Assembly (NCBI GenBank): GCA_039029275.1
Contig: JBCCGL010000011.1
Location: 44,676-108,675 of the forward strand
Reading direction: 5' to 3'
DNA length: 64,000 nt
Source of the DNA: Pseudomonadota bacterium
GTDB lineage: Bacteria > Pseudomonadota > Gammaproteobacteria > JBCCGL01
Under the pieces are notes generated by a model. That model was not told the origin of the DNA. It did not search any database and was given only the letters and a program-made list of their open reading frames with translations. A program made the translations under genes and the position numbers. Positions 7,765 to 30,441 of this stretch are shown in pieces (positions within the stretch are counted from its first letter, which is position 1; each line of letters starts with the position of its first letter).

Positions 7765-7947
7765 ATGGATATTCTTTTCTTTCTTATCCCCATCGCCGTT
7801 TTACTTGCATGTGTGATCGTTGGGGTATTTTTTTGGGCGGTAAGGAGCGGACAGTTTGAGGATCTTGAGGGACCGGCGTATCGTATTTTGCGCGACGACG
7901 ATTCAAACTCGCTCAACCGGCGGATCGAGCAGGAAAGGCAGGATTAA
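7765..7947 (+). CDS. ccoS: cbb3 oxidase maturation protein CcoS
   Basis: MDILFFLIP...FWAVRSGQFEDLEGPAYRILRDDD. Confidence 0.93.
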   Translation: MDILFFLIPIAVLLACVIVGVFFWAVRSGQFEDLEGPAYRILRDDDSNSLNRRIEQERQD

Positions 7948-8906
7948 CTGCCCCGTTTGGCGCTACTTTCGTACAGGTCCATGCCATCGGGTATTTGATC
8001 GTATTGTTTAAACTTGTCCAGCACCCATTCGCGAAACAAATCGTGGTGACGGTGCATGGTGCGGTTTCGTGGGGAGATCAGGTACACATTCTGTGGTGTC
8101 TGAACCACCGTATTGGCCACGCGCACCAGACGACCTTCCTGCAGATAACCGCCAGCCAAATGCTGCCAACCCAGCGCCACGCCTTGCCCGACGAGGGCCG
8201 CGTGAATCGCCGAGTGGTGGTCCGAGAAAACCACGTCTGGACTGCTCGTAGCGTCTATCCCTGTGGCCTCGAACCATTCGGACCATCCCATGCGCGATCG
8301 CTTTGGCTCGGTGGCGTAAAGTAAATTTGCCTGCTGCAGGGTTTCCAGTTCCATACATTCAGGGTGTGCTTTGACATAATCGGGGGACGCCAGCGCGTAG
8401 ACGCGCTCACGCGCCAGCATCCAGCTCTCCACATCGCTCCATTCACCCATTCCGATCCAGGTGCTGAAATCGCACGTGGATAACTCAAACGAATTCAGAT
8501 CACCGTGGTTTTCGGTGATTTCAAACAACACGCTCAGGTTTGCATCCTTGAACTCGGCGATATTCGGCACCAGCCACATCGAGACAAAGCTGGACGAAAA
8601 ATTGACCCGGATTTTCTGGCTGTCGCTACTGGGAATAATCTGCCGCACTGCCTGATCGACGCTGGTCAATGCTGTGCGCACCTGTGCAGCCAGGGCTTCC
8701 CCTTCGCTGGTTAGCGATAACCCTCGGTGTTGTCTGAAAAACAGTTTTACCCCCAGATTTTGTTCAATCTGACGGATTGATTTGCTAACCGCTGGCTGGG
8801 AAATACACAGCTCATCAGCAGCATTGGTGAAATTCAGATGTCTGGCAACGGCCTCGACGACGTAGAGACTGTTAAGTGACGGGAGAATTCGGCGCAGGTT
8901 TCGCAT
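7944..8906 (-). CDS. LysR-family transcriptional regulator (GcvA-like)
   Basis: LPSLNSLYVVEAVARHLNFTNAADELCISQPAVSKSIRQIE HTH; divergent from the 9004 operon. Confidence 0.93.
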   Translation of the reverse strand: MRNLRRILPSLNSLYVVEAVARHLNFTNAADELCISQPAVSKSIRQIEQNLGVKLFFRQHRGLSLTSEGEALAAQVRTALTSVDQAVRQIIPSSDSQKIRVNFSSSFVSMWLVPNIAEFKDANLSVLFEITENHGDLNSFELSTCDFSTWIGMGEWSDVESWMLARERVYALASPDYVKAHPECMELETLQQANLLYATEPKRSRMGWSEWFEATGIDATSSPDVVFSDHHSAIHAALVGQGVALGWQHLAGGYLQEGRLVRVANTVVQTPQNVYLISPRNRTMHRHHDLFREWVLDKFKQYDQIPDGMDLYESSAKRGS

Positions 8907-8921
8907 AACTTTAAATTATGC
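8903..8921. promoter_or_regulatory. LysR-type recognition site GCATAA-N7-TTATGC
   Basis: Perfect 6 bp inverted repeat containing T-N11-A. It overlaps the LysR start codon and is centred ~65 bp upstream of the start site inferred from an extended -10 (TGgTAGAGT, 8963-8971). Confidence 0.7.
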
Positions 8922-9003: not shown

Positions 9004-11433
9004 ATGAAATCACACGCCAAAGTCGTTGTAGTGGGCGGTGGATGCGTGGGCGCATCGATCCTTTACGGTTTAACCAATCATGGCTGCAGTGATGTCGTGA
9101 TGTTGGAGCGCACACAATTGACGTCCGGGTCGACATGGCACGCGGCGGGCCTTTTGGTGACATTTGCCCGCTCGTTCAATCTCTCGAAAATGGCGATGGA
9201 AAGTATCAACATCTACAAGGAAGTTGAAGAAAAACTGGGGACCTCAGTGGGGCTGCGTCAGGTCGGTCAGTTGCGCGTCGCCAACACCGAAAAGCGTTGG
9301 GATGAATTTCAAAGCTACATCTCAATCGCCGAAGCGGCCGGAATACCGTGTCGTTTGTTGACACCGCAAGAAGTGGCTGAAGCGCACCCGCTGCTGGCGC
9401 AAAACGAAAACATTCGTGGCGGCATCCTGCATGACAAAGATGGCTATGTGAATCCATCAGACATCACCATGGGTCTGGCCAAACTCGCCCGCGAACAGGG
9501 CGCGGTTATTTACCAGGATACCGAGGCCACAGCATACGAACACCAGGCAGACGGCCTCTGGAAAGTCACCACTAACCAGGGTGATATCACCTGTGAGCAT
9601 CTGGTCTTTGCAACAGGTAACTACACCCGCGAAAACGCACGCCGAGTTGGCCTGGATTTGCCCTGCATTCCGATCGTGCACCAATACTGGACAACCGAGC
9701 CTGTCCCTGAGCTGCTGCGACGTCGCAAGGAAGGTCTGCCGGAATTTCCAATCCTGCGTGACGAGGACTACGGTGCCTACCTGCGCGAGGATGTTGGCGG
9801 GTTCCAGTTTGGCCCGTACGAATTCGAAAAAGACCTCAAGCTGTTCGCCGAAGACCGAGTACCCCCCGATTTTGGTGCGGACCTGCTGCCGGAAGATTTT
9901 GAGGCAGTATCCACCCAGTGGGAACGCGCAATCGAACGCGTACCTGCACTGGGCGAAGTGGGCATCAAGGCCAATACGCGCGGCCCCTTCCAGATGACGC
10001 CAGACGAACTGCCACTTTGTGGTCCTGCGCCAAAGCGTCAAAACCTGTGGCTGGCTGAAGGCGTGCCTGGCGGCATATTCTGGGGAGGCACTTTGGGTGA
10101 GCGCCTGGCCCGTTGGATCATTAATGGTGATCCAGGCATTGATATGTCTGAAATTGATCCTCGCCGCTTTGGCGACTTTGCCTCCAAACGCTGGACCATG
10201 GATGTCGTGCGCGAAACCTGGGGCAACCATATGCACGCGCATGTGCCCGGTGAGGATTTTCCCTCGGCTCGCCCAATGAAAACAGCGCCCTCTTACGATT
10301 TACTCACCGCGCACGGCGCCGTCTGGACCTCGCTCAATGGCTACGAATTCCCCCGCTGGTTTGCCCCGTCACCGGAACAGGCGATTCCAGAGCACAGTTT
10401 TCGCCGCACGGAGCATATGGAGTACGTTCAGCAGGAAGTGAAAACCACGCGTGAAGAAGCCGGTTTTATCGAAATGTCGCCGATGACCAAATTTACCGTG
10501 CGCGGTCCCGGGGCCGCCGCGTGGCTCGACGGCATTATGGCCAACAAGCTGCCCAAAGTGGGTCACATGACTCTAGCGCTGGCTCTCAACCCACGCGGGG
10601 GAATGGAAGGTGAGTACACCGTTGTGCGTTACGCAGAAAATGACTTTTATCTGGTCAGCACTCCGACCGGTCAGGTGCATAACTGGGATTATTTATCGCA
10701 TCGCTTACCCGCCGATGGCTCTGTAGAAATGCAGGATATCTCAGAACAATTCGGCGTGATTGCATTGGCCGGACCTAAGGCACGCGAGATACTCCAGCCA
10801 TTGACCGATAATGACCTTTCCAACGAGGCTTTCCCCTGGCTCTCGGCACAAATGGGTGAAGTGGGTTACGCCAAGGGTGTTCACCTGCTGCGTGTCAGCT
10901 ATACCGGTGAGCTCGGTTGGGAACTGCACCACCCGATTGGGTATAACCGCCATTTGGTCGATCAGCTTCTCAAGGCGGGCGTCAAGCCGTTTGGCCTTGA
11001 AGCGCTTGAGTCCATGCGACTGGAAAAATCCTACCGCGCGATCAACCGCGAAATCTGCAAGGATCTGACTCCATTCGAAGTGAGTCTGGATCGGTTCGTC
11101 GTGCTCGAAGGCCGCGAATTTATCGGACGTGATGCACTTGTCAAGCAAAAGGAAGAAGAGGATTACCGCGTACTGGTCACCCTGAAACTGCCCTCGTGTG
11201 ATACCTCAGTTATCGCCGATGAAAGCGTCTTTAAAGACGGCGAGTTAATCGGTCGCGTGACTTCAGGGGGGTTCTCGTACCACTGCGACCACGATATTGC
11301 CATGGCGCTGGTGCCACAGGAATTCGCAGCCGATGGCACCCGAATGCAGGTAAAAATCCATAACGAACTTCGCGACGCTGAGGTTGTGGATGTTTGCCTC
11401 TACGATCCAAGCAGTGCGCGTGCACGCGTCTGA
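9004..11433 (+). CDS. GcvT-family FAD/folate-dependent oxidoreductase (dimethylglycine/sarcosine dehydrogenase-like)
   Basis: GGGCVG Rossmann motif, LTSGSTWHAAG, C-terminal GcvT domain (RVSYTGELGWELH, ESMRLEKSY). Confidence 0.92.
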   Translation: MKSHAKVVVVGGGCVGASILYGLTNHGCSDVVMLERTQLTSGSTWHAAGLLVTFARSFNLSKMAMESINIYKEVEEKLGTSVGLRQVGQLRVANTEKRWDEFQSYISIAEAAGIPCRLLTPQEVAEAHPLLAQNENIRGGILHDKDGYVNPSDITMGLAKLAREQGAVIYQDTEATAYEHQADGLWKVTTNQGDITCEHLVFATGNYTRENARRVGLDLPCIPIVHQYWTTEPVPELLRRRKEGLPEFPILRDEDYGAYLREDVGGFQFGPYEFEKDLKLFAEDRVPPDFGADLLPEDFEAVSTQWERAIERVPALGEVGIKANTRGPFQMTPDELPLCGPAPKRQNLWLAEGVPGGIFWGGTLGERLARWIINGDPGIDMSEIDPRRFGDFASKRWTMDVVRETWGNHMHAHVPGEDFPSARPMKTAPSYDLLTAHGAVWTSLNGYEFPRWFAPSPEQAIPEHSFRRTEHMEYVQQEVKTTREEAGFIEMSPMTKFTVRGPGAAAWLDGIMANKLPKVGHMTLALALNPRGGMEGEYTVVRYAENDFYLVSTPTGQVHNWDYLSHRLPADGSVEMQDISEQFGVIALAGPKAREILQPLTDNDLSNEAFPWLSAQMGEVGYAKGVHLLRVSYTGELGWELHHPIGYNRHLVDQLLKAGVKPFGLEALESMRLEKSYRAINREICKDLTPFEVSLDRFVVLEGREFIGRDALVKQKEEEDYRVLVTLKLPSCDTSVIADESVFKDGELIGRVTSGGFSYHCDHDIAMALVPQEFAADGTRMQVKIHNELRDAEVVDVCLYDPSSARARV

Positions 11434-11450
11434 TCGGGAGAAAATAAAAA

Positions 11451-12965
11451 ATGACAGTAAAGGCACGCGGCGAACGCAGCGGCCGCTCGGCTCGGGTAAA
11501 GGCTCGCATCAACCCGCCTCCAGTCTATCTGCCGACGCTGAACCGCAAGATCGGGCCGATTGAGCTGCTTGATTCCGAGGGCGTCGAAAAAATCCATACC
11601 GCCGCGATGACCATCCTTGAAACAACGGGGATCGAGTTTCGTGACCCGGTCGCTCTGGCCGATTGGAAAAAAGCCGGTGCAGATGTACAGGATCAACGAG
11701 TGCGCATCGGGCGCGATATGTTGATGGAGCTGATTTCGAGCGTTCCGTCAACGTATCGCATGCATGCGCGCAACCCGGAGCACACAATTGATGTGGGCGG
11801 GCGCAACTCGATCTTCGCCAACGCCTATGGAACGCCTTTCGTTTACGGATTGGATGGGGTCCGACGACCTTCCATGCTCGATGATGCGCACAACTTTTTC
11901 AAGCTCGCGCAGACGAGTCAGGCTATGCACGTTCCGGGTATTCTGCCGGTTGAACCGCAGGATGTCCCGGTACCCCAACGCCACCTGGATCTGGTCTCCT
12001 CGGCACTGACATTGACCGATAAACCCATCATGGGGTCTGTGCTGTCTGAGACCGCGGCGCGCGACACCGTGGAAATGGTGCGCATTGTTTTCGGGGAGGA
12101 CTTCGTCGATCAAAACGTCGTGCTGACCTCTTTGCTCAACTGCAATACGCCGCTGGTGTGGGATGAAACAATGTTGGAAAGCCTGCGTGTCTACGCGGCC
12201 GCCAATCAGCCCTGTCTGCTTTCACCGTTTGTATTGGCAGGTGCCAGCACACCCGCCAGCCCGTTCGGCGGTGTGGCGCTGTTGATTGCTGAATCACTGG
12301 CGGGTATGGCGTACAGCCAGATTATTCGTCGCGGATGCCCGATGGTGATGGGTGTAGCGATTATGGGCGTATCGATGAAGACCGGCGCACCAATGATGGG
12401 GTCACCCGAGCCCGGTCTGATGAATCTGCTGGTTGGCCAGATGGCGCGATTTTACCAGGTGCCATGGCGTTCCTGTACCATGTGGAGTGGTTCCAAATCA
12501 CCCGACTTGCAGGCGGGATTTGATAGCGCAAATACGATGTGGCCGGTACTGCTGGGTGGGTGTAACTTTCTGGTTCACACCGCCGGCTTTCTTGAAGGTG
12601 CGCTGGGAATCAGCTACTCGAAATGGGTCCATGATGCTTACCAGTTGGAGGCTTACCATCGTTTTTTCTCCGGGCTAAAAGAAGAAAATATAAGTGACCT
12701 GCTGAGTGACATCGCCGAGATTGGGCCCGGCGGGCACTTCCTCGGCACCGATCACACCCGCGAGAATCCGCTGCAGGTTAATCCCCTGCAAAATAACGAC
12801 AGCTTTGAGCAGTGGTATGACGAGGGCGCCAGGAACGCGGACGAGGTTGGACGCGAAGAGGCTAAGCGTATGCTGAGCGCGTATGTTAAGCCGCCAATGC
12901 CCGACGGTCAGGCCGGCGCACTGGCAGAATTCGTCGCCAAGAAACGCGTCGAATACATCAACTAG
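11451..12965 (+). CDS. MttB-superfamily (trimethylamine/quaternary amine) methyltransferase, non-pyrrolysine
   Basis: NCNTPLVWD, PFVLAGASTP, GSKSPDLQAGFDSA, HTAGFLEG, IGPGGHFLG; no in-frame amber codon. Confidence 0.9.
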   Translation: MTVKARGERSGRSARVKARINPPPVYLPTLNRKIGPIELLDSEGVEKIHTAAMTILETTGIEFRDPVALADWKKAGADVQDQRVRIGRDMLMELISSVPSTYRMHARNPEHTIDVGGRNSIFANAYGTPFVYGLDGVRRPSMLDDAHNFFKLAQTSQAMHVPGILPVEPQDVPVPQRHLDLVSSALTLTDKPIMGSVLSETAARDTVEMVRIVFGEDFVDQNVVLTSLLNCNTPLVWDETMLESLRVYAAANQPCLLSPFVLAGASTPASPFGGVALLIAESLAGMAYSQIIRRGCPMVMGVAIMGVSMKTGAPMMGSPEPGLMNLLVGQMARFYQVPWRSCTMWSGSKSPDLQAGFDSANTMWPVLLGGCNFLVHTAGFLEGALGISYSKWVHDAYQLEAYHRFFSGLKEENISDLLSDIAEIGPGGHFLGTDHTRENPLQVNPLQNNDSFEQWYDEGARNADEVGREEAKRMLSAYVKPPMPDGQAGALAEFVAKKRVEYIN

Positions 12966-12999
12966 GCAACAATTTGGCGCATGTAACCGGAGGGGGCCG

Positions 13000-14010
13000 A
13001 TGACTAACGTGACGACAAAAACAATCTCGCTCGCAGACGTACGGGCATTGGCCAAGCGCGTGCTTGTATCAGGCGGAATGGACGAACGCGGTAGCGATGT
13101 TATCGCTGACCTCGTGACAATGTGCGAGCGCGACGGGCCGCGCAGTCATGGATTGGCGATGCTGCCGCGCTATGTGCAGAGCTTTGAGTCGGGCTACGCC
13201 AATGGTGCTGCTCGCCCGAGTGTCGAAAAGATCGCCCCGGGCGTGCTGCGCGGCGATGGCGACAACGGGTATTTCCAGATTGCCTCTGACGTAGCTCGTC
13301 CAAAATTAATCGAACTGGCGCGCGAAAATGGCATTGCCGGCTTTACCTGTGCCAACACACATCATTTGTCAGGCCTGCGTTTCGAAACTGAAGCGCTGGC
13401 CAATGAAGGATTGGTCGCCATGTGCGTTGTCAACTCACTCGCACTGATTGTGCCTCACGGCGGCAACCGACCCGTTTTCGGCACCAACCCGATGTCGTTT
13501 GCCTGCCCGCGCGAAGGCGATGAACCGATCGTTTGGGACCAATCGTCATCAGTCGTGGCATTGATGGATATAAAACTGGCCGCCGCTGAAGGCCATGATC
13601 TTGATGTGCCGGGAGGGCTGGATCGCGCGGGCAATATCACCACCGATGCTGCCGAGATCAGCCAAACCCTGAGCCTGCTGCCTTTTGCGGAGCACAAAGG
13701 AACCTGTATTGCCATGATGGTTGAAATCATGGGGGCCGCGTTGGCGGGCGGCACACCCTCGATTAAAACCGAGGAAAAAGAGTCCTTTGGCTCACTTAAT
13801 GTTAAGCCCGGTGTGACCACCATCGCGATTGATCCGCACAAGTGGGGCAACCCCGGATTTCTCAAGCAGATCGGGCAAATGGTCGAGGATATGTGTGCTG
13901 CACCCGGCGTGCGCGTACCGGGAGACGGTCGCTTGCAACGTCGCGCCACAGCAAAGACGGACGGCATTGTGGCAAGCGCAGAACTCCTGGCGCAACTGGG
14001 CTACGAATAA
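13000..14010 (+). CDS. Ldh_2-family reductase, DpkA-like (Pyr2C/Pip2C reductase clade)
   Basis: ERDGPRSHG, THHL, VVNSLALIVPHGGNRPVFGTNP and LLPFAEHKG closely parallel Pseudomonas DpkA as recalled; ATG 13000 follows a GGAGG RBS. Confidence 0.82.
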   Translation: MTNVTTKTISLADVRALAKRVLVSGGMDERGSDVIADLVTMCERDGPRSHGLAMLPRYVQSFESGYANGAARPSVEKIAPGVLRGDGDNGYFQIASDVARPKLIELARENGIAGFTCANTHHLSGLRFETEALANEGLVAMCVVNSLALIVPHGGNRPVFGTNPMSFACPREGDEPIVWDQSSSVVALMDIKLAAAEGHDLDVPGGLDRAGNITTDAAEISQTLSLLPFAEHKGTCIAMMVEIMGAALAGGTPSIKTEEKESFGSLNVKPGVTTIAIDPHKWGNPGFLKQIGQMVEDMCAAPGVRVPGDGRLQRRATAKTDGIVASAELLAQLGYE

Positions 14011-14022
14011 GGTCAACTACCT

Positions 14023-15264
14023 GTGAAGCGAGTCGTTGTCGTTGGCGGTGGCGTCGTCGGTATATCCTGCGCGTTGTCCTTACAGGCCGATGGCCACCAC
14101 GTCACTGTGTTGGAACCAGGACCAATTGGTGAGGGTGCCAGCTGGGCTTCCTGCGGCTGCATCGCCGTGGGTGAAATCGTGCCCTTGTCGCAGCCCGGCA
14201 TGTTGGCGAAAGTCCCGGGCTGGTTAATCGATCCCGACGCGCCCTTGTCTCTGCGCCCGGCCACTGCACTGTCGCTGCTGCCATGGTTTGCACGCTTCAC
14301 TGCCAATGCGCGTCCGTCGCGTATGCGCGCGATTGCGAAAGACTTGTCTGCGCTCACGTTCTGTGCAACTGCAGATTTCAAGACACAGATTGCCGACGTT
14401 GGATGCTCCGAGTTGTTGGTTGAACGTCCCGTGCTCAAGTTATTTGACGACGAATCCGACCGCGACACCATGGGAGCTGCGTTTGGACTGGCGCGTGAAA
14501 TGGGTTGTACGATTGATGAAGTTTCGGGTCAGGAGGCGCATGAAATAGATCCCGCGATTGCAGCTGATTTTAAATACGCAGCGGTGCTACGCGACTGGAG
14601 CTACGTGACCGATCCAAAGTATCTGGTTGAAGCGCTGGTTGATGCGTTTGCCCGACGGGGAGGCACGGTGCAGCCATCGGCTGCAACCGGTTTTGATCGT
14701 GAGGGCAACAAAATAGTCGGCGTGCGTCTTGAACAGGGCAGCGTGGTAGAAGCAGACGAAGTCGTTCTTGCGGCAGGCACTCATTCCAAGGCACTGGCCA
14801 GGAGTTTGGGTTTGACATTGCATTTGGAAGGCTTAATCGGTTACTCCACAGCTTTACGCAACGCGGGTGTTGATTTGCAGCACACTGTTTTCTATCCAAA
14901 AGGCGGCTTTGGGATTACGCCTTACGATGGTGCGCTTGCTGTCGCAGGTACAATTGAATTTGCCGGCGCCAATGCTGCACCCAGATGGCGGCGGGCCGAG
15001 GTACTGGTAAAACAGGCGCACCGTGTATTGCCGGGTCTGCGAGATGATCAGGCTGAGCGTCGCATGGGAAGGCGGCCCTTCACGCCTGATACGCGGCCGA
15101 TCATAGGGCGCACTAAAAAGCTGGCAAACCTCACGCTGGCTACCGGTCATGGCCAGCTTGGATTAACGTTGGGTGCCACAACGGGCGGTCTTGTCGCAGA
15201 CGTCGTTACAGGTCGCAAACCCCGTCTGGATATTGCGGCCTACAGCCCTGACCGGTTTTCCTGA
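14023..15264 (+). CDS. FAD-dependent D-amino acid dehydrogenase/oxidase (DadA/HypO-like)
   Basis: GGGVVG, GASWASCG, MGRRPFTPDTRPIIG, TGHGQLGLTLG. Confidence 0.88.
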   Translation: MKRVVVVGGGVVGISCALSLQADGHHVTVLEPGPIGEGASWASCGCIAVGEIVPLSQPGMLAKVPGWLIDPDAPLSLRPATALSLLPWFARFTANARPSRMRAIAKDLSALTFCATADFKTQIADVGCSELLVERPVLKLFDDESDRDTMGAAFGLAREMGCTIDEVSGQEAHEIDPAIAADFKYAAVLRDWSYVTDPKYLVEALVDAFARRGGTVQPSAATGFDREGNKIVGVRLEQGSVVEADEVVLAAGTHSKALARSLGLTLHLEGLIGYSTALRNAGVDLQHTVFYPKGGFGITPYDGALAVAGTIEFAGANAAPRWRRAEVLVKQAHRVLPGLRDDQAERRMGRRPFTPDTRPIIGRTKKLANLTLATGHGQLGLTLGATTGGLVADVVTGRKPRLDIAAYSPDRFS

Positions 15265-15351
15265 ATATCGCCGCAGTGCGATAAAGTGAGCGGTTGATTT
15301 GTATTGCCGTCTCTGATGTTTTTGACCTGACTACGTTTAGAAAAGTAAAAG

Positions 15352-16455
15352 ATGAAAATAAAAGAAATCCATATCTACCAGCACGATCTGCCGGTGAAAA
15401 ATGGCCCCTATACGATGGCCAGTTGCACGGTGCACGCGCTTGACAGCACGCTGATCAAGCTTGTCGCTGAGGATGGCACCGAGGGCTGGGGGGAAACCTG
15501 TCCGGTCGGCCCAACCTACGCTGAATCTCACGCGCAGGGCGCGCGCGCCGCGCTTCATCTGCTGGCCGAGGGTCTGATCGGTGCCGATATTTGGCCACTG
15601 AGCCTGCAACGCAAAGCGAACAGTCTGCTTAATGGGCATAACTATGCAAAAGCGGCCGTGGATATCGCCGCACACGATCTCATGGGAAAACACTTTGGGA
15701 TGAATGTCGCTGATCTGCTAGGTGGAGCAGTCACGAATCGAGTTCCGTCGTACTACGCAACGGGTGTTGGTGCACCCGACGATATCGCGCGTCTGGCCGG
15801 CGAAAAGCGCGACGAAGGTTATCCGCGCTTACAGGTTAAAGTTGGCGGGCGACCGGTTGAAATTGATATCGAAACCATTCGAAAAGTGTGGGAAGTGATC
15901 GGGGGCTGGGGAATGCGCATGGCCGTCGATGGCAATCGAGGCTGGACCACGCGCGATGCGCTGCGAGTGAGTCGCGAATGCCCGGATATACCCTTTATCA
16001 TGGAACAGCCGTGCAACACCTACCAGGATCTTGAGAAGATACGACCGCAAGTCGGTCACGGTATATACATGGATGAGAACAGCGTCGATTTAAATACGGT
16101 GATATCAGCCGCGGGCACAGGGCTGGTGGATGGTTTTGGCATGAAAGTGACGCGTATTGGCGGCTTACAGAATATGCGCGCGTTTCGCGATATTTGCGAG
16201 GCGCGTAACTTGCCTCATACCTGCGACGATAGTTGGGGCGGCGACGTAATTGCTGCGGCGTGCACTCAGATCGGATCTACCATGCGTCCTGATCTCTGCG
16301 AAGGCGTATGGCTGGCTGCGCCGTATATCGAAGGACACTACGACTCTCAAAACGGTATCAGTATCAACGGCGGTCATATCCAACGACCGACCGGTCCTGG
16401 TCTGGGCGTAACGCCTGATGAAGCTATGTTCGGCGAACCTATTGCCAGCTTCTGA
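15352..16455 (+). CDS. hpbD: 4-hydroxyproline betaine 2-epimerase / proline betaine racemase (enolase superfamily)
   Basis: [59 protein letters not shown] and [10 protein letters not shown] match Pelagibaca HpbD (as recalled) along nearly the full length. Confidence 0.88.
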
Positions 16456-16612: not shown

Positions 16613-16634
16613 CACCCCGACAGACGCCGGGGTG
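16613..16634. terminator. possible terminator hairpin between convergent hpbD and BCCT
   Basis: CACCCCG/CGGGGTG 7 bp stem, 8 nt loop; weak U tract. Confidence 0.3.
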
Positions 16635-16657: not shown

Positions 16658-18223
<1,566 letters not shown>

Positions 18224-18443: not shown

Positions 18444-20753
18444 ATGAATGTCAAAACAAAGCTACTTATCACACTGAGCCTGTTGGCGATTGTGCCGATG
18501 CTCGTAACGGTTAGCGTGAGCGCCTGGGTTTCCGGGGATTCTGCAACCCGATTATTGGTTCGACAGACAGAGCAACAGCTTGCGCAGATACGCGACACAC
18601 AAAGACAAAACGTCAACAACTATCTAAATCAGATAGAACTTCTGCTCAAAAGTTATTCCCAAAGCAAAATGGCAATCGAGCTGTTAGATGAATTGGGTTA
18701 CAACGCGGAGGAATACGTTGATGAAAATCAGGATGTACCAATTGAAGAAACGCGGCAGACGCTGATTACCTATTACGAAGCAAATCCTTTGCTTGGCGAA
18801 TTTTCAGCCAGCGAACACGTGGCATCCCTCGAAGATTTTTCTGCTGTCATGCAGTACCGTTACATTGCGTTGAACGAAAACCCGGCACAAGAGCGGGAGA
18901 AGCTCATCAATCCCGGTGATTACTCATCGTATTCTGAGACCCATCGACGCTTTCAACAGGAAAATATCGATTACATGGCGTCGAATGGAATTGAGGATAT
19001 TTATATCATCGATTTTGAAGGAACGATTGTTTACTCAGTGCGCAAGAAAGCTGACTTTGGCACGTCGCTTTTGGACGGACCCTTCGCCAATAGCCGACTC
19101 GGTGAGCTATTCACGCAACTCGAATCGAAGGAATACAAGGGTGAGTTTCCGCTAAATTCAGACTTTTTTAGTTACCAGCCCTCGGGCGACACACAAACAC
19201 TGTTTATCGGCGCCCTGATAACCGACAGAACCGTGCCCTTAGGGATAGTTATCTTCCAACTGACGTCCCATGCCATCGACAACATCCTGACCAATCACGG
19301 TGATTGGCATTCAGCAGGTTTGGGCGAGACCGGACAAACCTATCTGGTGGGGCGAGACAAGACAGTTCGCAGCATCGATCGCAGATTCGTAGAAGCGCCC
19401 GAAGATTACCTTGAAAACCTGCAGCAAACGGGCGTAAGCGAGCAGTCGATCGAGGCGATTCGCAAACATCGCCATCCCATCAATATACAGGTGGTCGATA
19501 CGAAATCAGTTGATCTGGCACTGCAGGGAGAGTCCGGGTTTGCGCAGTTGCAGTCCAATTCCAGCGGCACAACTCTGTCCGCCTACGCACCTCTGGGGCA
19601 CGCGCGATTCGACTGGGCGATATTAGCTGAAATGGCGCAGACCGAAGCAAACGCACCCGCTGTCGAGTTAACCCAGCGAATACTGACCATAACTGCCGCC
19701 GCAGCAACTGCAGTCACTTTGATCGCCGTTCTGGCGGGAGGCCTATTTTCATCGCGATTGGTTCGCCCGATTGATCAGCTAACACGTGAGATTGACTACA
19801 TCGAATCGAACTCAGATCTCACAGTTAACCTGAGCGGTCATCCGTCTGACGTCACCATCGATATCGTGACATCGATGAATAAGATGCTGCGAAAACTTCA
19901 CGATATTATCAGTACGGTAGCGAAGGGAAGCGCGGAACTGTCTGGCGCGGCTGAGAATATTAATCGCATAAGCGAACAAACCTGCAAGGACATTCAAAAG
20001 CAAACCATCGAAACCAACAATATTACAGAGTCGATTGGCAAAATGATCGAGTCGATCCAGCAAAGCGATCAGGACGCTGGCGAAGCGAAAGTCGCAGCGA
20101 CTACTGCCGCAAGTCGAGCACACAGTGGTCGAGGAACAGTTGAGGCGACCACAAGCTCAGTTGGAAAATTCAACGACGAGATCACCAGCGCGTCTGAAGT
20201 GATCGGTCAGTTGGCTAAAAGTAGCACCGAGGTCAGCTCGGTTCTCGGTGTCATCAACACCATTGCAGAACAAACCAACCTTTTGGCTCTGAATGCGGCA
20301 ATCGAGGCGGCGCGAGCCGGCGACAAAGGGCGCGGATTCTCTGTCGTGGCTGACGAGGTGCGAGTACTGGCAAGCCGCACGCAAGAGTCGACCGAAGAAG
20401 TCCGAAAAATTGTCGACACCTTGCAGAAACACGCACAGGACGCGGTGGACACAATGGAAAATGGTCTTTCGCAAGGTCGCAATTGCGTCGATCGCGCTCA
20501 AGAAACCTCAAATGCGTTAACTGAAATCGCTGCATCGATTGAAAAACTTGCAGCATCAAATGACCGCGTTGCCAAAATCGCAAATGATCAGTTGCATAGT
20601 TCCAACCAGATTACCGAGCGACTCTCAGTTATCGGGCATATTTCAACGACGACCAACCGAAGTGCTCAAGACGTGCGACAAGCGAGCGAGGACATTAACC
20701 GTTTATCAACAGATCTGGATAAAGCGATTTCGGTATTCACATTATCCGCCTAG
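18444..20753 (+). CDS. methyl-accepting chemotaxis protein with large periplasmic Cache-like domain
   Basis: Two TM helices, HAMP region, signalling domain [34 protein letters not shown]. Confidence 0.93.
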
Positions 20754-20896: not shown

Positions 20897-22795
20897 ATGA
20901 ATTTCGATACTGGTACGCACGATCACCCTCTCGATCCGCTTACGCCTGGCGAACTGAAAAAAGTTGTCGATTTGATTCGACAATCCGATATTGGTCGTGA
21001 CTCTATCCTTTTCGAACAGATCCGATTAATCGAACCCGATAAGCATAACGTCCGCACTTTTAACCCAGGCGATCCGATTTCACGCTCGGCGCTCGCTGTG
21101 TTTCAGAACCGTGACAACGGCAATGTGTTCGAGGCACGAGTGTGTCTCGAGAATCAGACAATTAAAGCGAGCAGCATACCGGACGTACAAATTCCGATAA
21201 CACTTGAAGAGTGCGACGAGCTATCTTCCTTGGTCAAAGCAGATGACGCCTTCCTGCAGGCCCTGGCAGCAAGAGGTATCGATGATACAAACAAGGTTGT
21301 GGTGGAGGCGCTGAGCATGGCCAACTTCGCCGATCCTGAGGAAGAACAATTTCGCCTGGCGCGCGCGCATTGTTTCTACATCGAAGCACCCGATGACAAT
21401 CCACACGCGCGGCCGATTGAGGGTTTGGTGCCAGTTGTCGATCTCGGCGCAATGCGCGTATTACGGATCGAGGATTACGGGTCGAAACCGATTCCTTCTG
21501 ATCGCGGCGAATATCGCGCGAGCAAATTGGGGCACGTAGATCCGCCCACGGCGCGACTGGACATTACCCAAGCTGACGGTCCCGGATTCACAGTCAACGG
21601 CCATCATGTCAATTGGCAAAACTGGGATTTTCGGGTCGGATTTACCCCGCGCGAAGGTCTTGTCCTGCACACCTTGTCGATCAGTGATGATGGCGATTTG
21701 CGGCCGGTTGTGCATCGCGCGTCCTTAAGCGAGTTGGTTGTGCCTTACGCCGAAACGCACGGCGACCACTACCTCAATCATTCCTTTGACCTTGGCGAAG
21801 GCGTGTTTGGCAACGCGGTGAATTCACTCACGCTTGGCTGCGATTGCGTCGGCGAAATTTACTATTTTGATGTAAACCTTACCGATGCATTCGGTAACAT
21901 AAAGCATCTGCCCAACGCTATCTGCATGCACGAAGAAGACTACGGTGTATTGTGGAAGCATACAGATACACAAAACAACACGACCGAAGTGCGCCGGTCG
22001 CGTCGACTGGTTGTATCGTCGTTTTTTACAATTGGGAACTACGACTACGGCATCTTCTGGTATTTGTACCTGGACGGCACAATTGAGTTTGAGGCCAAGC
22101 TTACGGGCATGCTCTACACCCGCGCGTTGGAAAACGGCGAGAGCGCGAAATACGGCGTACAGGTCGCGCCAAACCTGTGCGGCATGATTCACGAGCACTA
22201 CTTCAATATTCGACTCGATATGTGTGTCGACGGCGATAACAACAGCGTGGTTGAAGTTGAGGCCAAGCGGGTTCCCACAGGCCCAGACAACCCACACGGC
22301 AATGCCCACGGGATACGCGAAACGATTCTTGACAGCGAACTAAACTCCGGCCGAGACACAAACGCCGCGGACGCGCGCTACTGGAAAGTGATTAATCGCG
22401 CTAAGGTCAATTCACTTGGATGGCCGTCCGGTTACAAGCTGATGCCCGGTAATAACGTCAAGCCCATGCACCAACCCGGCTCACCTTTTATGCGCCGCGC
22501 AGGGTTTGTTGCGCACGACGTATGGGTCACCGCCTTTGATGAAAAAGAACTGCATGCACCGGGCGACTACCTCAATCAGAACGAAGGTGGCGGGCTTTCT
22601 GAGTGGGTAAAGGCGGATCGCCCGATTGTTGATACCGACATCGTCCTTTGGCACACGGTTGGCGTTATGCACGTTCCGCGTCCAGAGGATTTTCCAGTTA
22701 TGCCTGTTGAATACACTGGATTCATGTTAAAGCCGGTTGGCTTCTTCGAGCGCAACCCTGCCTTGAATCTTGCGCCGCCGGGATGTGATAAATAA
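20897..22795 (+). CDS. copper-containing primary amine oxidase (TPQ)
   Basis: TIGNYDYG (TPQ consensus NYD), copper ligands HEH and WHTVG...HVPRPEDFPVMP; no signal peptide. Confidence 0.94.
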   Translation: MNFDTGTHDHPLDPLTPGELKKVVDLIRQSDIGRDSILFEQIRLIEPDKHNVRTFNPGDPISRSALAVFQNRDNGNVFEARVCLENQTIKASSIPDVQIPITLEECDELSSLVKADDAFLQALAARGIDDTNKVVVEALSMANFADPEEEQFRLARAHCFYIEAPDDNPHARPIEGLVPVVDLGAMRVLRIEDYGSKPIPSDRGEYRASKLGHVDPPTARLDITQADGPGFTVNGHHVNWQNWDFRVGFTPREGLVLHTLSISDDGDLRPVVHRASLSELVVPYAETHGDHYLNHSFDLGEGVFGNAVNSLTLGCDCVGEIYYFDVNLTDAFGNIKHLPNAICMHEEDYGVLWKHTDTQNNTTEVRRSRRLVVSSFFTIGNYDYGIFWYLYLDGTIEFEAKLTGMLYTRALENGESAKYGVQVAPNLCGMIHEHYFNIRLDMCVDGDNNSVVEVEAKRVPTGPDNPHGNAHGIRETILDSELNSGRDTNAADARYWKVINRAKVNSLGWPSGYKLMPGNNVKPMHQPGSPFMRRAGFVAHDVWVTAFDEKELHAPGDYLNQNEGGGLSEWVKADRPIVDTDIVLWHTVGVMHVPRPEDFPVMPVEYTGFMLKPVGFFERNPALNLAPPGCDK

Positions 22796-22805
22796 ATCCG
22801 ACTTG

Positions 22806-23387
22806 TCACGGCGAGATTCCGCCAAATAAACTCTGCACGGCGTGATCGCCCGCCTGTTTGGGATTCATTTGACCGGAGTGAATAGACCACCAGCCCACGT
22901 ACGTCACGCTATCGATCAACATGACGATCCAGTCTGTCGATAAACTTTCGTTGATTGATTTTTCAATTTTCGCGCGTTCCACGATTTGGGCGAGTTCGTC
23001 AAGTTGCCGATAGTAAATTTTGATCGCTTCATCGTTTTCTGAGGCAATTACCCACAGCAACATCAGAAAGTGAAATCGATCTGCCACTGGCATAATCGCG
23101 CGGATACCTTCGGTGATTACTTCAACCGCCGGCCTTTCAGGAACGTTCAACGATTTAAGAACAGCCTCTGATGCCTTCATAGACTCCGCAGCAAGCTCAA
23201 GCACCAGTTCATCGCGTGACTCGAAATGACGATACAGTGTCGCCCGCCCCACACCGGCGTGCGCCGCAATGTCACTCATTGACGCACGAGGATTTTCCAA
23301 CAGCAACTCGATTGCCGCGTTCAGCAATGCATCTCGAGAACGGTGAGCACGCGGATCACTGACATTGATACTTTTTTTACGAGACAT
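22806..23387 (-). CDS. TetR/AcrR-family regulator
   Basis: ASMSDIAAHAGVGRATLYRHFESRDEL; probable ATG at 23387. Confidence 0.92.
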   Translation of the reverse strand: MSRKKSINVSDPRAHRSRDALLNAAIELLLENPRASMSDIAAHAGVGRATLYRHFESRDELVLELAAESMKASEAVLKSLNVPERPAVEVITEGIRAIMPVADRFHFLMLLWVIASENDEAIKIYYRQLDELAQIVERAKIEKSINESLSTDWIVMLIDSVTYVGWWSIHSGQMNPKQAGDHAVQSLFGGISP

Positions 23388-23414
23388 AGTTGACCCACAG
23401 TTGTTTTGCATCTA

Positions 23415-23432
23415 TGATACACGTATGTCTTA
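23415..23432. promoter_or_regulatory. imperfect palindrome, candidate TetR operator
   Basis: TGATACA-N4-TGTCTTA in the 66 bp divergent intergenic region. Confidence 0.3.
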
Positions 23433-23453
23433 TATAGATCATTAATAATTCCA

Positions 23454-23747
23454 ATGCACAAAGCACAATTTTTAGCTAATCAGTGCTTTCAGTGGCTGAT
23501 CAAGAATAAAGGCAGAGCAATAGGTTCTTTGATCGTTATTGCTATTTCCACCGCCATGAACTGGTACTGGCTATGGGGCCTGCTACTCCTTTTGTGGGCG
23601 GTGAATGATTTTATTACATCGCAAACGTGGCTCTCTGAAACTATCTCCAAACGATCTAATCCCATTTTGTTTCACATCATCGTACTGATGTGGGCTGCCT
23701 TTGGCGTTTACTTCATCTTTTTCATCGATACGTATGAATACTACTAG
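23454..23747 (+). CDS. small Trp-rich membrane protein
   Basis: 97 aa, NWYWLWGLLLLLWA...NPILFHIIVLMW; 9 bp upstream of the Rieske gene. Confidence 0.7.
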   Translation: MHKAQFLANQCFQWLIKNKGRAIGSLIVIAISTAMNWYWLWGLLLLLWAVNDFITSQTWLSETISKRSNPILFHIIVLMWAAFGVYFIFFIDTYEYY

Positions 23748-23756
23748 GAGAAACTA

Positions 23757-24914
23757 TTGGACATGTTAACGGACAACTATCGAATCACCGCATCTGCGTC
23801 GCTTGAAAATGCAATCTCCCTTCCGTTTTCGGTTTACCGGGATCAAGACGTGTACACGCAGGAAATGGAGCGAATTTTTCGCAATGACTGGGTCTTTGTG
23901 TGCTTCGAACAGGAAATTCCTGATGTCGGAAACTACTTCGCTCTCGAACTCGCCGGCGAATCGATTGCGATTATACGAGGCAATGACGGCCACATTCGTG
24001 CTCTTTCAAACAATTGCCGCCACCGCGGAACGCCATTGTTAGATGAAGGGTTTGGTTCAATCGAAAAGTTAATAGTTTGTCCTTATCACGCATGGGCGTA
24101 TGACGATAAAGGCGCGCTCAAAGGGGCGCCGTTTAGCGGCACCGTAAAGATCGAAAAGGAGGAACACTGCTTGCCCGAGTTTTTGCTGGGCATTCATTTG
24201 GGCATGGTGTTTGTACACCTCGGCGATGCGGTGACACCGCTTGAGTCGCGCCTGTCCGGCTTGGCCGAGTTTGCCGCCGTGTTTCAACCTGAGCGATTTG
24301 ATTCCGCAAGCGAGAGCACCCGCGAAATCTGGCAGGCAAACTGGAAACTGGCGATGGAAAACGCAATGGAGAGTTATCACCTGTTCAAGGTGCACACAAA
24401 AACACTGGAAACGGTTACGCCGACGAAACAGTCGTACTACGTTGCCGGCAGCGCAGAGTGGACGCTAACTGGGGGTAAGATGATTGACAACAGCAGTGCA
24501 TTTTCCAAATGGTTTCGCGGCGATTATCCGGAAGCTTACGAGCACTACCTGCTGGTCAGCCTGCCGCCGAACTTTGTCGGTATCATGACGTATGATTCAT
24601 TCGGCTGGCTTAGCGTTAATCCGACAAGCTTCGATCAATGTGAGATTCGCGCCGGTGCCATTTTCTCAGGTGGGCACGGAGTCGAAGACAGCACCGCAAA
24701 AGAATTTACCCAGGCGTTTTTTGAAGAAGATAAATGGATTTGCGAACGCGTCCAGCGCGGAATGCGCTCGCAAAACGGTAGCGGTGGAAAACTGGTCGAG
24801 ATGGAGCGCGTGGTTGTCGACTTTCATCAGTACCTCGCATCGAGATTATTTGGTGAAGTCGGAGATGGCTTTTTCGAAAACCCTGATGACACTGTTTTCA
24901 AAAACTATAACTAG
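23757..24914 (+). CDS. Rieske non-heme iron oxygenase alpha subunit
   Basis: Rieske CRH...CPYH, mononuclear Fe motif ENAMESYHLFKVH, distal Asp in EEDKWICE; AGGAG RBS before TTG. Confidence 0.92.
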   Translation: MDMLTDNYRITASASLENAISLPFSVYRDQDVYTQEMERIFRNDWVFVCFEQEIPDVGNYFALELAGESIAIIRGNDGHIRALSNNCRHRGTPLLDEGFGSIEKLIVCPYHAWAYDDKGALKGAPFSGTVKIEKEEHCLPEFLLGIHLGMVFVHLGDAVTPLESRLSGLAEFAAVFQPERFDSASESTREIWQANWKLAMENAMESYHLFKVHTKTLETVTPTKQSYYVAGSAEWTLTGGKMIDNSSAFSKWFRGDYPEAYEHYLLVSLPPNFVGIMTYDSFGWLSVNPTSFDQCEIRAGAIFSGGHGVEDSTAKEFTQAFFEEDKWICERVQRGMRSQNGSGGKLVEMERVVVDFHQYLASRLFGEVGDGFFENPDDTVFKNYN

Positions 24915-30146: not shown

Positions 30147-30441
30147 TGAACCGCGATGCTACCGAGATGTATATCGATCAGGTAGGATTTCGTCTTAATA
30201 ACGTTTGTTCAAGGTGACTGGTAAGAACCTGTTTCTCCAGCTGATCTAACCACCGTAGACCCTCTAATTCTATCTGCAAACGCGCGCGGTACGCCCACAA
30301 ACCTAAACAAACATGAAAACTATGGGATTGTTTAACGAAGTCCTCATTTGTCCAGTTTTGTTATTTTTCACCATGTTTCTGCACAGGCGCTCTGGTATAA
30401 CGGGCTAAGCCACATAGATCGTGGCGTATCAGAGCTGTACG

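Follow-up and report, generated by a model that had tools for sequence, protein, structure and literature searches.

Gene content of the operon

We analysed a stretch of 64,000 nucleotides (nt) of contig JBCCGL010000011.1 from the genome of a marine-type gammaproteobacterium (hereafter the window, i.e., the whole stretch of DNA, to which all locus coordinates refer) with respect to a five-gene operon that encodes, in this order, a dimethylglycine dehydrogenase (DMGDH)-like flavoprotein, a non-pyrrolysine member of the MttB methyltransferase family, a DpkA-like reductase of the Ldh_2 family, a DadA-like D-amino-acid dehydrogenase (DAD) and HpbD, an orthologue of 4-hydroxyproline betaine 2-epimerase/proline betaine racemase (Table 1). 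An original prediction, made from the sequence of the window, regarded these genes as a pathway for demethylation of a cyclic betaine that does not depend on molecular oxygen. Our analysis leads us, with moderate confidence, to the view that the operon may encode an oxygenase-independent route for a proline-type betaine, most likely proline betaine (stachydrine). The gene layout was derived from the list of open reading frames (ORFs) and from Pfam and NCBIfam matches and was cross-checked with independent gene calls for the identical public contig. All sources agree and confirm the predicted arrangement of five co-directional genes with gaps of 12-87 bp and a divergent LysR gene; the intergenic gaps are, in order, 17, 34, 12, and 87 nt, and the spacer between the LysR gene and the operon is 97 nt. 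The BCCT transporter gene does follow directly downstream, 202 nt from HpbD, but, since it lies convergently on the minus strand, it is a neighbour of the operon and stands outside its transcript.

Table 1. Positions of the operon genes and adjoining features in the 64,000-nt window.
Feature	Position	Strand	Description
LysR-type regulator, GcvA-like	7944-8906	-	divergent from operon; HTH_1 + LysR_substrate (Pfam)
Candidate LysR box	8903-8921		inverted repeat GCATAACTT-T-AAATTATGC; T-N11-A inside; overlaps LysR start codon
DMGDH-like FAD/tetrahydrofolate flavoprotein	9004-11433	+	809 aa; DAO + FAO_M + GCV_T + GCV_T_C; proposed N-methylproline (tertiary amine) dehydrogenase yielding 5,10-methylene-tetrahydrofolate
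Non-pyrrolysine MttB, W-type	11451-12965	+	504 aa; PF06253; proposed betaine:corrinoid methyltransferase
DpkA-like Ldh_2	13000-14010	+	336 aa; PF02615; proposed delta1-pyrroline-2-carboxylate (or piperideine-2-carboxylate) reductase
DadA-like FAD-dependent D-amino-acid dehydrogenase	14023-15264	+	413 aa; DAO; proposed D-proline dehydrogenase
HpbD (MR_MLE)	15352-16455	+	367 aa; 4-hydroxyproline betaine 2-epimerase/proline betaine racemase orthologue
GC-rich hairpin, possible bidirectional terminator	16613-16634		between the convergent HpbD and BCCT genes
BCCT-family betaine transporter	16658-18223	-	convergent neighbour; probable uptake system

The label HpbD, already given to the last gene by the original prediction, is well founded. 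The protein is 69.5% identical (594.9 bits) to the enzyme of Paracoccus denitrificans (pdHpbD; 4e8g) and 65.1% identical (560.6 bits) to that of Pelagibaca bermudensis (pbHpbD; 2pmq), and both nest in a tree of the window protein and its 80 closest orthologues. The residues known from the characterised enzymes, i.e., the catalytic K164 and K266, the metal ligands D194, E219, and D242, and the substrate-binding D293 with a cage Trp (PMC3950512), are all kept (K163, D193, E218, D241, K265, D292, and W320). For cis-3-hydroxy-L-proline dehydratase, the sister activity, the NCBIfam model yields only 246 bits, its cut-off being 500. We regard the protein, a member of the MLE subgroup of the enolase superfamily, from its sequence as a true orthologue of the characterised HpbD enzymes with a predicted racemase/epimerase activity.

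For the MttB protein, the PF06253 match (556.8 bits) covers profile positions 2-498 of 500, and the frame of its gene is open throughout, with no in-frame amber codon or internal stop; the protein is classified as a full-length non-pyrrolysine member of the MttB superfamily. Among solved structures, 4yyc gives 427 bits and the glycine betaine methyltransferase MtgB (2qne/9yce) 307 bits. In the alignment, Y97, R312, and H348 of MtgB are kept as Y126, R340, and H376, the latter two corresponding to the Arg and His that bind the acid group of the substrate in MtgB. F356 is replaced by Ala384, and the aromatic pair Y97/F356 is thus half kept. This replacement was considered as a marker of specificity and rejected, since most proteobacterial MttB paralogues have Gly or Ala at this position. 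The orthogroup of the window MttB (W-type) comprises proteins with 64-87% identity, the next relatives being at most 55% identical, and its members are annotated solely as “trimethylamine methyltransferase family protein.” In a phylogeny against MtgB, as the original prediction had suggested, the W-type falls together with a second type that often accompanies HpbD (A-type; see below) and one paralogue of its own genome on a single branch with 100% support in the Shimodaira-Hasegawa-like approximate likelihood ratio test (SH-aLRT). Neither the 4yyc-type clade nor MtgB of Desulfitobacterium hafniense belongs to this branch. Judged by both the aromatic pair and the clade, the window MttB does not appear to be a glycine betaine-specific MtgB.

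The flavoprotein possesses all four domains listed in Table 1 (Pfam) and is colinear with rat DMGDH (522 bits, residues 2-797), by which domains and colinearity it can be assigned to the DMGDH family. The Ldh_2 protein matches PF02615 at 267 bits; its best solved relative is DpkA (1wtj/2cwf/2cwh) with 218.8 bits, the next one reaching 119.6 bits, and every NCBIfam equivalog, including those for malate, ureidoglycolate, and sulfolactate dehydrogenase, stays under its cut-off. It is predicted to belong to the DpkA-type reductases of delta1-pyrroline-2-carboxylate (Pyr2C) and piperideine-2-carboxylate (Pip2C). A longer Ldh_2 ORF starting at 12883 overlaps the MttB gene; the independent gene call places the start at 13000, and the earlier start does not seem likely. 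The DadA-like protein matches DAO at 174 bits and the NCBIfam D-amino acid dehydrogenase subfamily at 202.9 bits (cut-off of 383 not reached); its solved relatives, glycine oxidases, are all distant (up to 87 bits).

Corrinoid proteins and oxygenases in the host genome

The host assembly (4.44 Mb in 20 contigs, to which the coordinates with the prefix C refer) contains 16 genes of the MttB family (PF06253) and approximately 14 DMGDH-like genes. At least eight of the MttB genes adjoin a DMGDH-like gene, and these pairs derive from different clades. The expectation of the original prediction that the operon would reveal the substrate of the proteobacterial MttB-GcvT pairs in general can, therefore, not be upheld. 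Further MttB genes occur at, e.g., C12:69372-70865, C9:220099-221592, and C1:272416-273906. The last one belongs to a cluster (C1:271378-277640) of a LysR gene followed by divergent genes for an MttB, a DMGDH-like protein, and an enolase-superfamily protein. The latter shares 45% identity with HpbD and reaches 257 bits with the cis-3-hydroxy-L-proline dehydratase model (cut-off 500); the cluster probably encodes a related pathway that acts on a different betaine. One paralogue (C14:86504-87991) was examined for pyrrolysine and rejected: its in-frame TAG is found at codon 29 of the longest frame, far from the pyrrolysine position, and probably represents a mis-called start or a defect.

The sole set of genes for a small corrinoid protein is located at C5:78162-83414. 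It encodes the corrinoid protein with B12-binding and B12-binding_2 domains at C5:78162-78866, DUF1638, a Pterin_bind methyltransferase, a GFA protein, and an activase of the RACo/RamA type (linker, middle, and C-terminal domains), and a gene for formate-tetrahydrofolate (THF) ligase is situated directly upstream. By analogy with the MtgBCD model of Ruegeria pomeroyi, this set probably serves all 16 MttB paralogues in trans. The host also encodes CbiC, a marker for the synthesis of B12, and PutA. Altogether, the host lineage looks like a specialist in the catabolism of methylated amines.

Neither a Rieske enzyme of the HpbB/Stc2 type with its reductase nor HpbA/StcD of the old yellow enzyme (OYE) type is encoded in the operon (Pfam, NCBIfam), and profile and sequence searches of all contigs revealed no Stc2 or GbcA orthologue in the host genome. 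With the GbcA model, no host protein reached the cut-off; the best one (C16:63892-65100) scored 297 bits vs. 670, has 214 bits to Stc2 (3vca), and lies in an unrelated genomic context. By these searches the canonical Hpb/Stc oxygenase route does not seem to be present in the host. A flavoprotein resembling HpbA/DgcA is encoded at C8:253636-255693 beside soxBDAG, a position that fits glycine betaine catabolism. The corrinoid set in trans and the lack of Stc2/GbcA orthologues, together with the adjacency of the MttB and DMGDH-like genes in every member of the orthogroup examined, agree with the original prediction that MttB would remove the first and the GcvT-like enzyme the second methyl group, bypassing the Rieske enzyme and HpbA.

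Conservation, origin and flanks of the operon

To place the operon in a wider context, the 80 closest HpbD loci of species-representative genomes (73-84% identity) were examined. Neighbours within 10 kb were counted by tblastn, which replaced ORF-based clustering because spurious antisense ORFs hid genes in high-GC loci; the locus samples are biased to Roseobacteraceae. An MttB-family gene is present within 10 kb of HpbD in 59 of the 80 loci, a Rieske gene of the locus-associated type in 15, and an HpbA-like gene in 6. Divided otherwise, 46 loci have only MttB, 2 only the Rieske gene, 13 both, and 19 neither. The W-type (at least 80% identical to the window MttB) accounts for 6 loci and the A-type (approximately 42% identical) for 53.

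The A-type gene usually stands directly upstream of HpbD and is followed by genes for two short-chain dehydrogenases/reductases (SDR), an FAD oxidoreductase, an aldehyde dehydrogenase, and a protein of the dihydrodipicolinate synthase (DHDPS) family. The same arrangement, including the A-type gene directly upstream of the hpbD orthologue, is found on plasmid d of Cereibacter sphaeroides (L115, NZ_CP015215.1, 11932-19866), a strain derived from Rhodobacter sphaeroides 2.4.1, the source of the characterised rsHpbD (RSP_4007); the paper on the R. sphaeroides HpbD (PMC3950512) passes over this gene, the word “methyltransferase” being absent from its text. The host genome contains a cluster (C7:173253-181233) that resembles the A-type HpbD loci, with an MttB 49% identical to the A-type, two SDR genes, and genes for an FAD oxidoreductase, an aldehyde dehydrogenase (57%), a DHDPS-family protein, and a LysR regulator, but without HpbD.

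These A-type loci bear on the question of whether the window operon might serve, by the same mechanism, another cyclic betaine, i.e., trans-4-hydroxyproline betaine (tHyp-B; betonicine/turicine) or pipecolate betaine (homostachydrine), which HpbD would epimerise and of which the D-hydroxyproline or D-pipecolate would be processed by the DadA- and DpkA-like enzymes. Some HpbD enzymes indeed prefer tHyp-B; kcat/Km of rsHpbD is 4300 for this substrate vs. 170 for L-proline betaine (PMC3950512). Furthermore, DpkA is bifunctional, acting on both Pyr2C and Pip2C, and DpkA-like LhpD proteins in hydroxyproline clusters reduce hydroxylated pyrroline carboxylates. However, the operon is devoid of the delta1-pyrroline-4-hydroxy-2-carboxylate (Pyr4H2C) deaminase and the ketoglutarate-semialdehyde dehydrogenase of the hydroxyproline betaine route (Pfam, NCBIfam), and the enzyme families of this route accompany the A-type clade and the C7 cluster of the host instead. 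We know of no report of HpbD activity on pipecolate betaine. A substrate of this kind is, in our opinion, unlikely for the window operon.

The W-type clusters have a different composition. All 6 W-type HpbD loci contain a DMGDH-like gene (78-85% identity), and 5 contain both Ldh_2 and DAD genes. The linkage to HpbD persists despite rearrangement: L012, L040, and L098 have the genes on one strand, and in L016, L019, and L023 they diverge. In all 12 related loci the DMGDH-like gene adjoins MttB, and in 11 of them a divergent LysR gene occupies the same position, its product being 66% identical to the window regulator only in Shimia thalassica and 26-37% elsewhere. Of the 10 loci whose MttB is at least 78% identical, 9 contain Ldh_2 and 6 contain DAD, Ldh_2 accompanying the MttB/DMGDH-like pair in a fixed order with short gaps. 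The related loci also contain transporter genes, i.e., BCCT genes inside the clusters L012, L059, and L098 as well as OpuAC-type transporters. LysR, the DMGDH-like gene, MttB, and Ldh_2 thus make up the conserved W-type unit, which in most cases also has DAD. In more distant members (64-70% identity), the DMGDH-like/GcvT neighbour is retained and other transporters have been gained; HpbD and Ldh_2 are absent there. In Ruegeria sp. R13_0 (L011, 14858-18350) a DMGDH-like gene (80%) abuts Ldh_2 near HpbD, with no MttB between them.

HpbD is enriched with this W-type module. It is encoded somewhere in the genome of 4 of the 5 testable W-type carriers, and among 201 sampled Roseobacteraceae genomes, of which 2 contain the W-type MttB and 11 HpbD, both W-type genomes carry HpbD, one of the two being the chosen centre of the sample. 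Nevertheless, HpbD is accessory to the module. Since it joins the module only in some genomes, the substrate of the module is something we infer, and the original prediction of a cyclic betaine, for which the presence of the HpbD orthologue speaks, has to be put forward less firmly than was done.

Several observations weigh against our assignment. The neighbourhood search for MttB, GcvT, and HpbD proposed by the original prediction gave a two-sided answer: MttB is commonly found near HpbD, but, starting from the W-type MttB, HpbD occurs within 10 kb in only 1 of 6 loci (Cohaesibacter). In Ruegeria sp. KLH11, which has the core of DMGDH-like, MttB and Ldh_2 genes, the HpbD orthologue is absent genome-wide; HpbD is, hence, dispensable for the core, and the substrate of the core need not be that of HpbD. 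The Ldh_2 imine reductase stays a core member even where the racemase is absent. The change of F356, being common to most MttB paralogues, is not diagnostic. The Rieske enzymes are essential for the use of proline betaine in P. denitrificans and are induced by it in R. sphaeroides (PMC3950512), and in the latter an MttB gene nevertheless stands beside hpbD, so that adjacency of MttB and HpbD is no proof that MttB acts on proline betaine. Finally, Rieske oxygenases belonging to the GbcA/CntA/Stc2 superfamily are numerous in the host genome (approximately 15), and the window itself contains one (23757-24914; 142 bits to the GbcA model). These paralogues or the C8 flavoprotein could act on proline betaine or N-methylproline and, with so many Rieske paralogues, an oxygenase route for proline betaine is conceivable in this host.

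The occurrence of the core without HpbD would also be expected if the operon were a mosaic, in which the MttB/DMGDH-like pair demethylates glycine betaine to sarcosine, and Ldh_2, DAD and HpbD form a separate imino-acid module that shares the LysR promoter. MtgB and DMGDH represent the best-known activities of both families, three of the four residues of MtgB that contact glycine betaine are kept, and the regulator is GcvA-like. We consider this improbable, however, since F356 of the glycine betaine motif is lost and 9 of the 10 loci mentioned above have Ldh_2 together with the pair, in fixed order and at short distance. In addition, the host possesses a separate 4yyc-type MttB/DMGDH-like pair at C12 and the DgcA-like gene beside soxBDAG, which fits glycine betaine catabolism. 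The W-type clade is present in only 2 of the 201 Roseobacteraceae genomes, whereas MtgB-type use of glycine betaine is widespread there; it can, therefore, not be the general glycine betaine MtgB.

The presence of Ldh_2 and DAD as core members where the racemase is absent would be explained by a substrate of another kind, either the betaine of an acyclic alpha-amino acid or a diamino acid with an N-alpha-trimethyl group. Once demethylated twice, it would leave an N-methyl amino acid, which the DadA-like enzyme, or Ldh_2 acting as an N-methyl-amino-acid dehydrogenase, would oxidise with release of methylamine; in the diamino-acid variant, the 2-oxo acid of ornithine or lysine would cyclise to Pyr2C or Pip2C and subsequently be reduced by Ldh_2. 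DpkA is also described as an N-methyl-L-amino-acid dehydrogenase/imine reductase. On the other hand, HpbD stands in line in the window operon and in at least six other loci, the BCCT and OpuAC transporters are typical of small betaines, and acyclic and diamino-acid betaines are rare in nature. To us this explanation seems very improbable, and we retain a proline-type betaine as the probable substrate.

The operon is probably of foreign origin. CcoG of the host is at most 70% identical to any database match, the named ones being metagenome-assembled genomes (MAGs) of Arenicellales, Thiogranum, and Chromatiales, and this gammaproteobacterium has no close relatives among sequenced genomes. The operon proteins, in contrast, are 79-87% identical to those of Alphaproteobacteria (a Hyphomicrobiales MAG, Ruegeria, Cohaesibacter, and Shimia). 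The sole genome of the same genus has 12 MttB paralogues, none of which is of the W-type (best 45%), and lacks HpbD (best 34%). This absence in the congener and the alphaproteobacterial affiliation indicate horizontal transfer, and the simplest reading of these comparisons is that the operon was acquired by a lineage already specialised in corrinoid-dependent demethylation. W-type clusters also occur on megaplasmids of Ruegeria, where two further copies lie (L116), and genes for insertion sequences or transposases flank them in Leisingera (L112, 14248-15483) and in an assembly of the European Nucleotide Archive (L113, 3343-5692 and 16276-21521). Apparently, the module is a plug-in that is passed on horizontally and exploits hosts with an existing corrinoid-dependent demethylation. 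Two other indicators of transfer were discarded: base composition is not decisive, as the GC content of the operon (55.7-57.6%) compares with 52.8% for the genome while its GC content at third codon positions falls within the genome range, and the comparison with an empty site in the congener is uninformative, as synteny is lost beyond ccoI (CcoI approximately 47% identical).

Upstream of the locus lie the cco genes ccoG, fixH, ccoI, and ccoS, which had led the original prediction to connect the route with a microaerobic, cbb3-encoding host. This idea is not borne out: the operon is absent in the sole congener, it is never found beside cco genes elsewhere, and it apparently stems from Alphaproteobacteria. 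With a horizontal acquisition, the adjacency to the cbb3 accessory genes is incidental, and we consider them an unrelated flank.

With respect to regulation, the best NCBIfam matches of the LysR protein are GcvA (229.6 bits) and the choline-sulfate regulator (206 bits), both under the cut-off. The inverted repeat in Table 1 is a candidate LysR box based on the T-N11-A rule. The hairpin between the convergent genes folds at -21.2 and -19.5 kcal/mol (z -0.8 and -1.5); it is a possible bidirectional terminator, with weak statistical support. Scans for promoters and terminators gave counts no higher than the shuffled expectation, folding of the spacer between DAD and HpbD revealed no significant hairpin, and an Rfam scan of the window yielded zero riboswitches or other RNA families. 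The BCCT protein scores 546 bits with the Pfam BCCT model and 465 bits with the NCBIfam glycine betaine BCCT model, under its cut-off of 650.

A 769-aa chemoreceptor (18444-20753), matched weakly by dCache_1, is encoded beside the BCCT gene, and a chemoreceptor gene also flanks HpbD in the Cohaesibacter locus L098. The chemoreceptor was considered as a McpX-like sensor of quaternary amines and rejected, as solved relatives were found for the signalling domain only and none for the ligand-binding region. At 4-8 kb from the operon, a copper amine oxidase, a divergent TetR regulator, and a Rieske/Ring_hydroxyl_A oxygenase (20897-24914) may form a further amine-catabolic unit. The 1188-aa protein encoded at 30421-33987, in which RCC1-like repeats precede multiple PKD domains, is unrelated to the operon.

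Proposed route and comparison with known systems

Proline betaine and hydroxyproline betaine are abundant osmolytes of plants, algae, and invertebrates. To our knowledge, the only characterised aerobic route for both betaines starts with an O2-dependent Rieske demethylase. In the route that we propose for the window operon, the betaine would be taken up by the neighbouring BCCT carrier, and HpbD would interconvert its L- and D-forms. MttB would then move one N-methyl group to the Co(I) form of the corrinoid protein encoded elsewhere in the genome, yielding N-methylproline. The MtgC-like corrinoid protein would be unloaded onto THF by the MtgD-like pterin-binding methyltransferase and kept active by the RamA/RACo-like activase and DUF1638. 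The DMGDH-like flavoprotein may oxidise the remaining N-methyl group onto THF, forming methylene-THF and proline. D-proline would be oxidised by the DadA-like enzyme to Pyr2C, which the DpkA-like enzyme would reduce to L-proline, the latter finally being degraded by PutA. The divergent LysR protein would induce the operon. We infer these enzymatic steps, as well as the substrate and the stereochemistry of the route, from the genes present, the HpbD orthology, the conserved linkage, the corrinoid set in trans, and the absence of Stc2/GbcA orthologues.

The conservation of the DadA-like and DpkA-like genes beside the MttB/DMGDH-like pair suggests that the product is probably D-proline. For P. 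denitrificans, a “D route” had been weighed and discarded on the ground that the organism fails to grow on D-proline (PMC3950512); the window operon carries exactly the two predicted enzymes that such a route would need. That the pathway is strictly D-specific is, nevertheless, rather doubtful. Equally tentative is a more far-reaching idea, i.e., that the MttB and DMGDH-like proteins form a cobalamin-dependent module specific for the D-enantiomers of proline betaine or homostachydrine, with D-proline or D-pipecolate as an obligatory intermediate that is re-inverted by the DadA- and DpkA-like enzymes. This module would be a mobile plug-in without corrinoid genes of its own, requiring MtgC, MtgD, and RamA of the host, and, together with the far commoner A-type, it would make B12-dependent rather than Rieske-type demethylation the prevailing first step in the breakdown of proline-type betaines by marine and rhizosphere Proteobacteria.

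If the HpbD-linked MttB clades indeed act on cyclic betaines, two large uncharacterised branches of the MttB family would gain substrates. Marine and rhizosphere heterotrophs would then need cobalamin for more than glycine betaine, and methyl groups of cyclic betaines would pass straight into the folate pool in the form of methyl- and methylene-THF. The cluster offers a clean test case, with a bona fide HpbD, a simple assay for each step, and culturable carriers such as Ruegeria arenilitoris, Ruegeria sp. SCSIO 43209, Shimia thalassica, and Leisingera. Furthermore, the A-type MttB beside hpbD in R. sphaeroides 2.4.1, a studied model of the pathway, brings a direct genetic test within reach.

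In the literature searched, we encountered no description of an oxygenase-free combination of the Hpb type, nor of the very frequent pairing of HpbD and MttB genes. In this respect the novelty claimed by the original prediction stands, but a general proposal, in which additional MttB paralogues of aerobic Proteobacteria draw on a common MtgC to handle other methylated substrates, has already been published (PMC12478193). One of the closest systems is the Hpb pathway of P. bermudensis, P. denitrificans, as well as R. sphaeroides (Kumar et al., 2014; PMC3950512). It is alike in HpbD (65-70% identity, with all active-site residues), in having a LysR-type regulator and a nearby betaine transporter, and in the two successive N-demethylations to proline, which for the window route are proposed. 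It differs in its demethylases, the Rieske HpbB/C and the OYE-type HpbA, in place of which the window operon has MttB and the DMGDH-like protein. The window operon, moreover, adds the D-amino-acid dehydrogenase and the Pyr2C reductase, which implies a route via D-proline.

For MtgBCD of R. pomeroyi DSS-3, aerobic demethylation of glycine betaine by what is described as a split methionine synthase has been shown genetically, and up to seven MttB paralogues per genome have been suggested to share a single corrinoid protein (PMC12478193). By domain content, the list of parts is the same as in our host (pfam06253, a separate corrinoid protein, a pterin-binding methyltransferase, a RamA-like activase, and DUF1638), and common to both are, for the host by prediction, a folate-linked second demethylation and the sharing of one corrinoid protein by several MttB proteins. 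The window MttB, however, belongs to a rare clade, is linked to HpbD, DpkA-like and DadA-like genes, and is predicted to act on a proline-type betaine instead of glycine betaine.

By its described activity, MtpB with MtqC and MtqA of Eubacterium limosum is also comparable: this MttB-superfamily enzyme converts proline betaine to N-methylproline via a corrinoid protein and THF (Picking et al., 2019). The organism is an anaerobic acetogen for which N-methylproline is the end product, and its system is not known to include HpbD, a DMGDH-like protein or a module for D-to-L conversion. The combination of DpkA with a D-amino-acid oxidase or dehydrogenase is an established pairing in the D-lysine/D-proline metabolism of Pseudomonas (PMC3958920). 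Here, too, an FAD enzyme forms a cyclic imine from a D-amino or D-imino acid, and an Ldh_2-family NADPH reductase converts it to the L-imino acid. The window pair differs in that it sits in a betaine demethylation operon and in that its reductase has just 219 bits to DpkA. The parts and principles, i.e., MtpB, the aerobic MtgBCD, HpbD, and DpkA, are thus already known, and it is their combination that is new in the literature searched.

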